From NCBI GenBank assembly GCA_015233375.1, contig JADFXW010000002.1, positions 1 through 44,105 on the forward strand: 44,105 nucleotides of DNA. The letters run 5' to 3'. Source of the stretch: Candidatus Omnitrophota bacterium. GTDB taxonomy: Bacteria; Omnitrophota; Gorgyraeia; Zapsychrales; Fredricksoniimonadaceae. Below, one piece after another: positions 34,161 through 44,105 of the stretch. How positions within the stretch are numbered: the stretch's first letter is position 1; each line of letters starts with the position of its first letter. Below the pieces are notes generated by a model. The model was not told the DNA's origin. It worked only from the letters and a program-made list of their open reading frames with translations, and searched no databases. Position numbers and translations under genes: made by a program.

Positions 34161-34182
34161 CTGCATCACGTGGATGGAAAGA

Positions 34183-34290
34183 AAATTGGCTCTTTGAAAT
34201 TTTGAATGGGTAGCAAAGCTTAATCTTACGCGAGGCCAAGCCACCCGCTAATCTATACCATTCCTACCCATTCAAAATTCAAAAGAATCA
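34183..34290 (+). repeat. Mosaic repeat unit: T-motif hairpin enclosing junction motifs ('empty' copy)
   Basis: CTTTGAAATTTTGAATGGGTAG ... CTACCCATTCAAAATTCAAAAG form a 22-nt stem. Positions 34183-34260 are near-identical to 43907-44105, except that the latter carries an extra GC-rich hairpin. Confidence 0.85.
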
Positions 34291-34317
34291 GAAAATTAGA
34301 TAAGGACGAAGAATTTT

Positions 34318-36141: not shown

Positions 36142-36321
36142 GGCTTGAGGGAGGGCTATTATGTTTTCAGAACAATAAGGGATTTTTGGCCAAATGTTTG
36201 CGAGGGCTTACAATAAATTTTTTCTAAATATACTAAGGATGCTTTAGAAGAAATTTATTGTAAACCGAAGCAAACGGCCAAAATATCCCGTTCAGAAAAC
36301 ATAATAGCCCTCCCTCAAGCC
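36142..36321. repeat. Long palindromic intergenic element E3 (subfamily II, inner segment inverted relative to E4)
   Basis: GGCTTGAGGGAGGGCTATTATGTTTTC...loop CTAAATATACTAAGGATGCTTTAG...GAAAACATAATAGCCCTCCCTCAAGCC. Confidence 0.9.
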
Positions 36322-36365
36322 TTGCGTGATTTACCCAATCAAAATTTTCAACAGAATTCATATAT

Positions 36366-38018: not shown

Positions 38019-38197
38019 GGCTGGCGGGAGGGCTATTATGTTTTCGGAATGGGATATTTTGGCCGTTTGCGTCTGTTACAATAAATTTTTTCTAAAGCAT
38101 CCTTAGTATATTTGGAAAAAATTTATTGTAAATCCTCGCAAACATTTGGCCAAAAATCCCTTATTGTTCCGAAAACATAATAGCCCTCCCGCCAGCC
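38019..38197. repeat. Long palindromic intergenic element E4 (subfamily II)
   Basis: GGCTGGCGGGAGGGCTATTATGTTTTC...loop CTAAAGCATCCTTAGTATATTTGG...GAAAACATAATAGCCCTCCCGCCAGCC. Confidence 0.9.
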
Positions 38198-38244
38198 CTG
38201 CATGATTTACCCATTCAAAATTTTAAAGAGCCTTTAATTTTTAT

Positions 38245-41271: not shown

Positions 41272-42413
41272 GCATATCTAAAATTAGGATTTTATATTTG
41301 CATAACATGACTCAAATCAGTGGAGGGGAGCAGAGCCTTTTAAATCTTTGGGCAAAACTGGACCGTCAGCGATTTGAGCCTTTTTTAATAATCCCTGAGG
41401 AAGGTGATTTAAGTCGTGCTGCTAAAATCCTTGGTGTTCCAGTGGCTTTTCTTGATGTGCCGCCGCTTCATTCTGAGAATTGGAGGCAGATTTTGCAAAC
41501 GGCCCTTCTATTAAGAAAATATTTACGTTTAAACAGGATTGACCTCATCCATTCGTATTCACCCCGTAATAATATTTTAAGCGCCCTGGTGGCCAGGTTT
41601 TTAGGCCTGCCTGTTATTTGGCATGAGCGTAACCTTATTTTTGGTGATGAGCCGGATAGAAGCAGGCAATTTTTTTATTTACCATCCCGTATCATTTGTA
41701 ATTCTCAAGCCGTGTCAAAGCGTTTTGAAGGAGTCAATGGTTTTAACCAGAAGGTGAGGGTTATTCTTAATGGGGTTGACTTGGAGGAATTTAAGCCGCT
41801 TGATGCCAATCTTAAAATTCAAAATAAGTTTGGGCTTGTTGATAAGAAGGTGGTAGGCATGGTCTCTAATCTTAATGCAAGAAAGCGAATTGAGTTCTTG
41901 ATAGAGACAGCTCCCTTGGTTGTTGAAAAAATGCCTGATGTTAAATTTTTAATTATTGGGGGAGAATTTCCAGATGAAAGGGGTTGGCGGCTTAAAGAAC
42001 TGAAAGCCCAGGCTAAGCGTGCAGGAGTCCTTGATCATATCGTATTTGCCAATTTTCAGGACGATGTTTGTCCATTCTTGAATGTTCTTGATCTTGTTGT
42101 TCATGTGACCCCCAAAGAAGCCTGTAGCAGGGCGATTCTGGAGGCGATGTCTTGTGCTAAGCCCGTGGTGGCCATGAATGATGGGGGGAACCCTGAATTG
42201 GTGAAGGATGGACATACAGGCGTTTTAGTCACTCTTGATGACAAAGAAGTTTTGGCCGAAACTATTATTAATCTTCTCTGTGATGATTCAAGGCGTTTAA
42301 TGATGGGCCAGCAAGGACGGCAAAGGGTGGAACAATTGTTCGATGTGAAAAGAAATGCCCAAGAAACCCAAAAGGTTTATTTAGAATGCGTTTCCTCATC
42401 GATTTCTTCTTAA
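41262..42413 (+). CDS. GT4 glycosyltransferase
   Basis: IRILYLHN..GGEQS and KEACSRAILEAMSCAKPVVAMNDGGNPELV. Confidence 0.85.
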   Translation: MNTRISKIRILYLHNMTQISGGEQSLLNLWAKLDRQRFEPFLIIPEEGDLSRAAKILGVPVAFLDVPPLHSENWRQILQTALLLRKYLRLNRIDLIHSYSPRNNILSALVARFLGLPVIWHERNLIFGDEPDRSRQFFYLPSRIICNSQAVSKRFEGVNGFNQKVRVILNGVDLEEFKPLDANLKIQNKFGLVDKKVVGMVSNLNARKRIEFLIETAPLVVEKMPDVKFLIIGGEFPDERGWRLKELKAQAKRAGVLDHIVFANFQDDVCPFLNVLDLVVHVTPKEACSRAILEAMSCAKPVVAMNDGGNPELVKDGHTGVLVTLDDKEVLAETIINLLCDDSRRLMMGQQGRQRVEQLFDVKRNAQETQKVYLECVSSSISS

Positions 42414-43906
42414 AGAATTTTTATGCATGGGTCATGGCAGGATTAGTGGTCTATATCTTTTCAGGCCTGGCCTTTTGCCAATTATTATCAGCGGACGCTT
42501 GCAATTACCTTAATATAGCCCAGAACATTGCCCATCATAAAGGCTTTGTGATTAGTTATAATTCCGCGCAAATTTTTAATACCCTGTATTATCCTATTTG
42601 GCCCTATTATCAATTTTTATACCCACTTTTTTGTTCTTTGTTTATTGCGCACGGCGGGATCATTGGGGTGATAAAGGTCAATGTCGTTTTGTTTGCTGTG
42701 AATGCGGCCATCATCTTTTATGTTATTCAGAAATTAATCCCAACACGATTAAATATCTTGTTTCTCCTGTATCTGGTATTCAGCACGAACGTTTATCTTT
42801 CCGCTATTTATCCGTGGACTGAACAGCTGCATTTTTTATGTTTTATTTTAACCTTCATGGCTTTTTTAAAATATGCCCATAATCAAAAAGCTTTGGTGTT
42901 GTTAGGTTTTTTAAATAGCGTCTTGCTTCTGTTGAGGGAATCTCATTCCTTTATTATTTTAGGTTATTTATTATTTATCCTTATGGGAGGGCTGCCCATC
43001 CAGGGCCGTATCAAATCCTTAGTGTCTTTTATCACAGGGGTTCTTTTATTTTATGTCCCCTACCAGTGGTGGTGTTATGGGTCAACCCACGCTTTTTATC
43101 CACAAAATGCCAAAGGGTCTATAATTTTCTCAATGTCAGGTTATACGAATCGTGTGATTTATGATATTTCAAAGGTTGGTCCGCAACTGACCCTAAGTCC
43201 TTTTTTTACAATTGAGCATATGATAAATATTAAGAAACATATTTCTGATATCTTGCATCAAATGTCGGCCTTTATGATTCCTTGTTTTTTTTATTATTTA
43301 TTGCCTGAGCAAAAAAGAAAGGATGGAGGGCTGGTTGGGCTTGCGTTTTGTCAAAGCCTTACGGGGATTTTGGGTTTTTCTTTATCATTTTATATGTTTG
43401 ATTATTTTGATGCCATCAGGTATTCGATGGTCCATTTTATTTTAATTAGTATCGCAGGCTGGTATTGTTTGTATCAAGGATTGGCTATTTCAGCATCGAG
43501 GGTCTGGCGGACAATCATGGTTATTGTCTTGGTTGTTTTAGTGTTGCCTTTAAGTATTCAATTTTTTGATAATAGAGAAGCTTTATTAAGAAATCCCCGA
43601 TGGGTTTCTCTGCCCTATGAGAAGGATTTGTTTGCGGCGTATCAATGGATTGATAATAATTTGCCCCCAGAGGCCTTGATTGCCTCAGATGAAAGACAGG
43701 AAGCGTATTTGATGCATCGTCCATTTGTGAATGTGCCTGAAGGCAAGGCCTTTACTTGTGAGAATTTATCGAGGTTTCAAAAGATTTATGCACCAGATTA
43801 TTATCTATTGTCTGACAAGATTTTAGGTACTTGTTTGGAGCCTGCCAATTATTCAGTGATATTCGTTAATCACCATTTAAGGCTTTTAAAATCTAAAACC
43901 AGTTAA
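42386..43906 (+). CDS. GT-C-like (ArnT/PMT_2-like) polytopic membrane glycosyltransferase
   Basis: 506 aa and polytopic with a soluble C-terminal domain. Post-TM1 motif ADACNYLNIAQNIAHHKGF resembles the D-x-x-x-Y..A.N...G.G loop of ArnT-like enzymes. An alternative start at 42434 avoids the 28-nt overlap. Confidence 0.6.
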   Translation: MRFLIDFFLKNFYAWVMAGLVVYIFSGLAFCQLLSADACNYLNIAQNIAHHKGFVISYNSAQIFNTLYYPIWPYYQFLYPLFCSLFIAHGGIIGVIKVNVVLFAVNAAIIFYVIQKLIPTRLNILFLLYLVFSTNVYLSAIYPWTEQLHFLCFILTFMAFLKYAHNQKALVLLGFLNSVLLLLRESHSFIILGYLLFILMGGLPIQGRIKSLVSFITGVLLFYVPYQWWCYGSTHAFYPQNAKGSIIFSMSGYTNRVIYDISKVGPQLTLSPFFTIEHMINIKKHISDILHQMSAFMIPCFFYYLLPEQKRKDGGLVGLAFCQSLTGILGFSLSFYMFDYFDAIRYSMVHFILISIAGWYCLYQGLAISASRVWRTIMVIVLVVLVLPLSIQFFDNREALLRNPRWVSLPYEKDLFAAYQWIDNNLPPEALIASDERQEAYLMHRPFVNVPEGKAFTCENLSRFQKIYAPDYYLLSDKILGTCLEPANYSVIFVNHHLRLLKSKTS

Positions 43907-44105
43907 AAATTGTGGCTCTTTGAAATTTTGAATGGGTAGCAAAGCTTAATCTTACGCGGGGCCTGTCTTGGCCGGCGTGTTAACGTGCTCCTCTTGGCGA
44001 ATGGCAACCCTATCAGCGGCCAGAAAGGGGGTTTCCCTTTACCGCTGACTTGGGCACTGGTCGTGCGCTCGTTAACACGCCGGCCAAGACACCCGCTAAT
44101 CTATA
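43907..44105 (+). repeat. Mosaic repeat unit ('filled' copy), truncated by the window end
   Basis: AAATTGTGGCTCTTTGAAATTTTGAATGGGTAGCAAAGCTTAATCTTACGCGGGG ... CACCCGCTAATCTATA matches 34183-34260 on both sides of an inserted hairpin. Confidence 0.85.
43965..44090. repeat. GC-rich 126-nt hairpin nested in the repeat unit
   Basis: A perfect 21-bp outer stem GTCTTGGCCGGCGTGTTAACG / CGTTAACACGCCGGCCAAGAC. An inner hairpin TCAGCGG..AAAGGG-ggttt-CCCTTT..CCGCTGA. Markedly more GC-rich than its surroundings. Confidence 0.8.

Follow-up and report, generated by a model that had tools for sequence, protein, structure and literature searches.

A 224-bp MITE of an Omnitrophota genome carries a structured hairpin module found across its genus

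Two repeat units with common flanks in the window

The window analysed here is a whole contig (C132; 44,105 nt) of the assembly G000, a host genome of 1.76 Mb in 209 contigs that is 64% complete and has 42% GC. Near its right end, where a locus rich in glycosyltransferases finishes, the plus-strand ORF at 42386-43906 encodes a predicted membrane protein of 506 aa that has no match in Pfam. As the preliminary description had reported, two repeat units with common flanks lie in the window, unit A at 34188-34289 and unit B at 43914-44105. Unit B is a real element, but it starts at 43914 (GGCTCTTT...) and not at 43907 as first given. The left flank block extends over 51 nt at 98% identity (34187-34237 versus 43913-43963), and the right flank block CACCCGCTAATCTATA is common to both units. 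The sequence between the flanks is AGGCCAAGC in unit A and a GC-rich hairpin in unit B, and the two units differ by about 122 nt.

The earlier account of this hairpin holds for its stem, whose 25-nt arms (43964-43988 and 44067-44091) are 96% complementary with a 22-nt perfect stretch, for its inner stem-loop (TCAGCGG..AAAGGG/CCCTTT..CCGCTGA) and for its outstanding GC content (0.61 versus 0.42 genome-wide). Its size was given as 126 nt, while the module defined by the whole family is about 141 nt (43956-44096) and includes a closing stem, GCGGGG...CACCCGC. In this core module, the closing stem is accompanied by a 3-nt bulge and a stem of ~22 bp, and some 80 nt of interior are conserved. The module lies on the minus strand, the usual "sense" orientation of the family, where it matches the covariance model R1 described below with 165 bits (E ~1e-37). 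The RNA of a full copy is predicted to fold at -99.6 kcal/mol on one strand (z = -6.6) and at -110.5 kcal/mol on the other (z = -8.8).

Outside the core, unit B has a left terminal inverted repeat, GGCTCTTTGAAATTTTGAATGGGTAG (43914-43939, plus strand), the same 26-nt arm that bounds all complete copies, and a left linker, CAAAGCTTAATCTTAC (43940-43955, plus strand), that forms an internal loop in the fold. The 8 bp to its left, AAAATTGT (43906-43913), occupy the expected position of a target-site duplication and overlap the last stop-codon base of the ORF at 42386-43906. The right linker starts with TAATCTATA (44097-44105, plus strand), where the contig end cuts the element, which continues on contig C88. 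Unit A is complete at both ends. Its left terminal inverted repeat (34188-34213, plus strand), placed by comparing the arms of complete copies, and its right one, CTACCCATTCAAAATTCAAAAGAATC (34264-34289, plus strand), form an inverted pair that is 88% complementary, and identical 8-bp target-site duplications, AGAAAATT, flank them at 34180-34187 and 34290-34297. Between the arms lies a stub of the core module, GCGAGGCCAAGCCACCCGC (34230-34248, minus strand), in which the hairpin ends are joined at GGCC and 122 nt are missing compared with the copy on contig C155.

The repeat unit is a MITE with 8-bp target-site duplications

The repeat unit is a 224-bp non-coding, non-autonomous DNA transposon (MITE). 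We compared six complete copies from G000, a second genome of the genus (G012) and two metagenome contigs, and all six are bounded by 26-bp terminal inverted repeats, GGCTCTTTGAAATTTTGAATGGGTAG ... CTACCCATTCAAAATTCAAAAGAACC. Directly outside the arms stand 8-bp direct repeats that differ from locus to locus, five of them perfect and one matching at 7/8 positions. The repeats are TAAATATT for the C155 copy, GAAATTCT for the C165 copy, ATTATTTA for the G012 copy and TTTTAATT for one metagenome contig, all perfect, and ATAAGTTA / CTAAGTTA (7/8) for the second metagenome contig. These duplications are AT-rich, and no ORF of at least 60 aa is found within the units (224 bp and 102 bp long). Inverted repeats with 8-bp duplications are the signature of a DDE transposase that inserts its element by cut-and-paste or copy-and-paste with a stagger of 8 bp; the MITE inserts by such a staggered cut, and the AT-rich duplications are left behind.

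A BLAST search of the genome found several further copies of the hairpin, which is therefore not unique. Full MITE copies are present at C155:4548-4771, between the gene for a 658-aa membrane protein and a hyfC/nuoH-like gene, and at C165:4426-4647, between atpD and atpC; partial copies stand at the contig ends of C88 and C5/C26/C175, and a second short copy is on C99. In total, G000 has 16 arm matches and at least 6 MITE loci, and more loci are found in G012, G003, G015 and metagenomes. All module copies in G000 are packaged in MITEs and stand in the minority orientation.

The core is carried between at least three types of arm, found in G000, G003 and Ga0105164, and all of them start with GGYTCT. 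The long forms of G003 (L095, L097, L102-L105 and L109) have arms starting GGTTCTGTCAAAAT, with direct repeats of 8-10 bp at fixed offsets; these arms presumably resemble IS6/IS257-type ends. Within 36290-36360 and 38166-38241 of the window, the arm motif GGCTCTTTAAAATTTTGAATGGGTA abuts two 180-nt palindromes (at about 36344 and 38220; cargo AATCATGC..GGGAGGGCTATTA). The observation extends to C135, C147, C156 and C164 of G000, and other combinations of arm and cargo are found as well, of the GTGGGATGGAGGGAG and GTGGACGGATGAGGTGAATT types. These observations suggest that G000 may have a set of MITEs with common ends and different hairpin cargo.

Copies at contig ends

The window ends inside the element, and C88 is the only contig that continues the terminal 30-mer of C132. 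The two contigs overlap by 72 identical nt, including a diagnostic GACACCC variant. The right partner that was expected past the window end is indeed present on C88 as ...CCATTCTTCCCCATTCAAAATTCAAAAGAACC, but the 8-bp flank that follows it, ATAATTTT, is mismatched to the left flank of unit B (AAAATTGT) and fits another truncated copy better, agreeing at 7/8 positions with the flank of the C5/C26/C175 copy (ATAATTTC). The join of C132 to C88 is thus uncertain, because the assembly graph collapsed at the element. If C88 does continue C132, unit B faces a convergent IS110-like gene: at about 17950-18970 of C88, some 420 nt from the right arm of the MITE and convergent with the last gene of the window, lies a 339-aa ORF starting MENYYVGIDLHS..., which looks like an IS110-family transposase.

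Because contigs break inside the element (C132, C88, C5, C26, C175 and many metagenome contigs), the difference between units A and B might be ascribed to a collapsed or chimeric repeat. We regard such an artefact as having a negligible chance of being the explanation, since full and short copies alike stand intact in the interior of long contigs, each between unique flanks and with a duplication of its own (C155, C165, C132:34188 and C99), and MITE copies with the same architecture recur in independent assemblies. The element nevertheless breaks assemblies at contig ends, and it can mislead the annotation of intergenic RNAs.

A resident ISL3-family element as the likely mobiliser

ISL3 transposase genes (PF01610) are found on three contigs of G000 (C149, C44 and C109), and C-terminal ends of such genes stand at nine contig ends, indicating that the IS is multi-copy. 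The nine ends are those of C88, C111, C183, C187, C30, C42, C142, C110 and C157, and the IS explains many of the contig breaks. On C109 the IS is about 1.36 kb long, and this copy looks frameshifted. The ends of the ISL3 element are GGTTCATTCGTACTAAGGGCG and, reverse-complemented, GGTTCTTTCGTGTTTAGGGCG. They have the terminal GGTTCTTT in common with the MITE arms and are identical to them at 13 of the first 17 nt, diverging beyond. No ISL3 copy with arms identical to those of the MITE was found in the 64%-complete G000 assembly; in other metagenome contigs, the arms of a long form (GGTTCTTTCGCATTTATTGGACAA) are even nearer to the ISL3 ends.

The IS6 and IS256 families likewise have 8-bp duplications and GG ends. 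For IS6, only a weak 34-bit match was found, in a 417-aa frame, and we rejected this family as the mobiliser. The classical target duplication of ISL3 is 8 bp (PMC7643977). The MITE has both the 8-bp duplication and the GG-initiated inverted repeat that mobilisation by ISL3 calls for. From the multi-copy resident ISL3, the similar ends and the 8-bp classical duplication, we infer that an ISL3-family transposase of the same genome is the likely candidate partner, which would mobilise the MITE in trans.

The hairpin-rich architecture also recalls REP/REPIN- or IS200/IS605-type elements, whose single-stranded hairpin DNA is mobilised by a Y1 (RAYT/TnpA) transposase, and G000 has two Y1_Tnp genes, on C168 and C110. 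Long terminal inverted repeats and 8-bp duplications are, however, not products of Y1 transposition, and both Y1 genes have unrelated repeats of the GAATTCTGGTGAC type, not the MITE, at their flanks. Movement by a Y1 transposase is therefore highly improbable for the MITE, and it may apply to the bare modules of other genomes only. At C168:6300-7600 (L200), part of the 5' region of the Y1 (IS200/RAYT-like) gene is present a second time behind that gene, along with runs of GAATTCTGGTGAC-like short tandem repeats.

Short copies as probable internal deletions

The preliminary description had read the two units as a filled and an empty site, with the hairpin itself being mobile and either inserted into, or precisely excised from, an intact unit, so that 34188-34289 would be a true empty site. 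That a discrete, structured, GC-rich element distinguishes the two copies is borne out, and over 100 loci of related genomes have this element in the absence of these flanks. Its occurrence without the flanks and the presence of other cargo hairpins between the same kind of arms are in favour of this model, and they indicate that the module was enclosed by the arms at some time. The short copies themselves argue against it. Unit A keeps both module termini, GCG[A/G]GGCC ... AAGCCACCCGC, and the closing stem is retained in both unit A and the C99 copy. Each unit is its own transposon insertion, and unit A must be a separate one because it stands at a locus of its own, flanked by a target duplication of its own.

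The junctions of the short copies lie at microhomologies of specific full variants. Removal of 122 nt from a C155-type copy gives unit A, whose junction shows GGCC microhomology, and the apex of the C99 copy corresponds to a C165-type copy minus exactly 117 nt, with CTGTC microhomology and 0 mismatches; the right-hand CTGTC is found solely in the C165 variant. A third collapse is seen in the stub between hisB and hisH of G002, so that three collapses have three different junctions, and each has lost nearly the whole long stem. In addition, bare modules show neither a target duplication nor a fixed target. We consider the empty-site model quite unlikely, and the short copies are, as judged from their sequences, internal deletions and not unfilled sites or products of precise excision. 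Three differing junctions that each remove most of the stem point to slipped-strand deletion rather than to site-specific excision or an unfilled target, and we infer that unit A and the C99 copy would have lost the central hairpin by slippage between direct repeats of 4-5 nt that lie where the stem begins. In unit A, the deletion may have occurred either before or after insertion at that locus.

A hairpin module of one genus

The part of the 224-nt unit from position ~41 to ~191 is also found by itself in relatives, lacking the arms, at 70-88% identity (BLAST), and the centre of the MITE is, on this comparison, one member of a genus-wide family of GC-rich hairpin modules about 141 nt in length. 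From 35 copies we built an alignment (A1) and the covariance model R1, both oriented as the reverse complement of the plus strand of the window. Full-length matches to R1 are present in 14 of the 16 other congeneric genomes, with top counts of 25, 21, 19 and 15, and the copy number ranges from 0 to 25 per genome. Under stricter filters, R1 found no match in 46 genomes from 16 other genera of the family, nor in 150 further Omnitrophota genomes from 111 genera. A scan for exact motifs detected the element in 33 metagenome contigs, many of which end within it. The same scan gave no match among viral contigs, and a link to phages was dropped.

Pairing in the module is well maintained. Across 95 aligned matches, 96.6% of the cells in the 20 modelled pairs are paired, and 13 pairs show double-sided changes (179 cells), far above shuffled and slid controls. 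The C165 copy has a double compensatory change, in which CCGG became ACAG on one side and CCGG became CTGT on the other. The closing stem GCGGG...CCCGC accompanies the module at all loci while the sequence outside it varies by locus, indicating that this stem belongs to the module. The interior of about 80 nt contains the strongly conserved blocks GCGCACGG, GGGAAACC, GCUGAUAGGGUUGCC and AGGAGCA. No convincing covarying helix was detected in the alignments of this interior, where subfamilies of the module seem to pair differently. In the interiors of G013, G014 and G011 copies, GGUUCU...CGUUCU (direct) stands against GGCUCU...AGAGCU (inverted), as if a segment had been replaced by its complement. 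Six loci of G006, G011 and G015 (L056, L069, L070, L091, L092 and L093) have an extra mini-hairpin of 10 nt, AAGCGAAGCGC, inserted immediately ahead of the 3' strand of the main stem, which we read as a recurrent modular variant.

An Rfam search, run with gathering and with permissive thresholds, gave no match at the element, neither on the window copy at E <=10 nor on five diverse members at E <=1, on both strands, and the hairpin can thus be assigned to no Rfam family; a tRNA/tmRNA scan also gave nothing. A small peptide was considered and rejected: a frame of 21 codons (M/V-L-T-S-A-R...) runs through in some copies and is interrupted by stops or 1-3-nt indels in others. An integron attC site was likewise rejected, the copies being dispersed across housekeeping operons and sharing sequence. 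A literature search on Omnitrophota repeats gave nothing relevant, and this MITE family with its genus-specific structured core is new and undescribed.

Bare modules at operon junctions and a possible role in RNA

Outside G000, the module mostly stands bare in the gap from a stop codon to the following ribosome-binding site, as a rule with 0-50 nt to either side. The junctions, named by reading the translated neighbours and not by a family search, belong to housekeeping operons and include hisB-hisH, pntAA-pntAB, dnaK-dnaJ, gyrB-gyrA, gatA-gatB, recX-alaS and cydA-cydB. Bare modules show no flanking inverted repeats, 8-bp direct repeats or fixed target. They may be old MITE insertions that have lost their arms, or an independent element that may have been captured repeatedly.

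The hisB-hisH junction illustrates the gain and loss of the module. The spacer is empty (0-19 nt) in G016, G010, G006 and G004, holds the full module with common flanks in G012, G013 and G015, and has, with the same flanks, a collapsed stub (GCGGCGGGTGGCGAGG|CCGAGACAGGCCCCGCTGGC) in G002. Among G012, G013 and G015, the identity of the module is 75-83%, against only 27-57% at the fourfold-degenerate sites of the genes beside it, which indicates that either purifying selection acts on this module or gene conversion has homogenised it with other copies. In G007/G001, G008, G011 and G000, other families of hairpin repeats occupy the spacer. The junction (L141-L153; ~1360-1453 of C133 in G000) is a genus-wide hot spot, where hairpin or tandem repeats of at least four further families are found, among them GACCGTTTCT...AGAAACGGTC in G007/G001, CCCCCTC../..GAGGGGG in G008 and G000, and tandem CATTCGGGCATGACAAGGGAAGAGATGCCCGACAGAAG in G011.

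The module also shows a strong strand asymmetry. We scored the orientation of 92 copies, which are related and thus not independent: between co-directional genes, 53 are sense and 7 antisense, and 6 stand between divergent and 2 between convergent genes. In the stems of these non-independent copies, the non-Watson-Crick oppositions on the sense strand comprise 59 G·U against 12 A·C, and in the wider arms G·A/A·G oppositions are far commoner on the sense strand than pyrimidine-pyrimidine ones. Part of the orientation bias and of the G·U excess could reflect a mutation bias linked to transcription. The size of the asymmetry favours a constraint on the RNA, and the single orientation together with the maintained sequence and pairing at operon junctions points to constraint on the transcribed RNA. 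In the relatives, we would guess that the bare module acts as an intercistronic mRNA hairpin that affects processing or stability, as REP, ERIC and Correia elements do. In G000, the module is a mere passenger of the MITE.

A stronger reading would make the core primarily a structured RNA that benefits its host, with the MITE as one of its vehicles. It might then act between cistrons on processing or stability, serve as a platform for protein binding, or be a ribozyme of an undescribed kind. Such a role would fit the 53:7 sense orientation, the 59:12 excess of G·U over A·C, the G·A pairs on one strand, the covarying stems around a conserved interior of about 80 nt, the retention at orthologous operon junctions with conservation far above that of synonymous sites, and the module 3' ends that abut ribosome-binding sites. 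Against it stand the restriction to one genus, the gain and loss at junctions that are empty or hold other repeat families in sister species, the range from 0 to 25 copies per genome, the lack of an Rfam match, an interior without covarying helices, and the antisense and decaying copies of G000. On these grounds we consider a primary role as a beneficial RNA possible but not probable. It is more doubtful still that the core is an undescribed functional RNA of one Omnitrophota genus that was spread in ISL3-type MITEs and kept without arms at operon junctions; if so, it could be, for example, an intercistronic element, self-processing or bound by a protein, through which the expression ratio of paired subunit genes is set.

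Relation to known small repeats

The packaged module has much in common with IS-derived bacterial MITEs such as Correia of Neisseria, RUP of pneumococcus and MITEAba12. These are also small, non-coding, dispersed and intergenic, they likewise have terminal inverted repeats of about 26 bp, a target duplication of fixed length and a related transposase gene in the genome, and they share the long-hairpin fold and the location in transcribed spacers. In contrast to them, the arms here match the ends of the resident ISL3 over the first ~17 nt only, and the centre is a conserved structured module and not IS-derived filler. This module also stands without arms at many loci, and several MITE lineages with different arms share it.

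The module is also akin to ERIC/IRU, the Rickettsia palindromic elements (RPEs) and bcr1, which are imperfect palindromes of 100-170 nt inside operons, whose arms change in step, which are gained and lost as blocks and whose copy number varies among relatives. The module is likewise an imperfect palindrome in transcribed spacers with compensatory changes in its arms. The likeness is one of kind, with no sequence relationship expected, and the module differs from these repeats in its strong bias to a single orientation and its large, conserved, asymmetric interior; unlike RPEs, it is not seen within coding sequence. We know of no inverted-repeat-plus-duplication signature for ERIC-type repeats, whereas the packaged module has one. 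REP/BIME/REPIN sequences with their RAYTs are also extragenic hairpins between cistrons with a plausible effect on mRNA stability, in genomes that have Y1 genes, but the element described here is much longer, has terminal inverted repeats with 8-bp duplications, and is not clustered around Y1 genes.

Interpretation

Taken together, a 224-bp MITE that carries a genus-wide core as its passenger, and that gave rise to short units by loss of the hairpin between short repeats, is the probable explanation of the two units, and we hold it with good confidence. Hairpin repeats are abundant and unexplained in Omnitrophota, and here one of them has a concrete transposition signature in its inverted repeats, its 8-bp duplications and a candidate ISL3 transposase. 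The deletions between microhomologies, which the hairpin would promote, outline a route of decay, and the family as a whole displays the birth, movement and death of such repeats. The same core is found as a young MITE passenger and as an old, orientation-fixed and conserved insert in housekeeping operons, and it thus offers a tractable case of a mobile structured element that has been domesticated, or at least tolerated, within mRNAs.

Elsewhere in the window, at 1505-1637 of the minus strand, a match to the cobalamin riboswitch aptamer scores 32.3 bits, against an Rfam gathering score of 31.5 bits.
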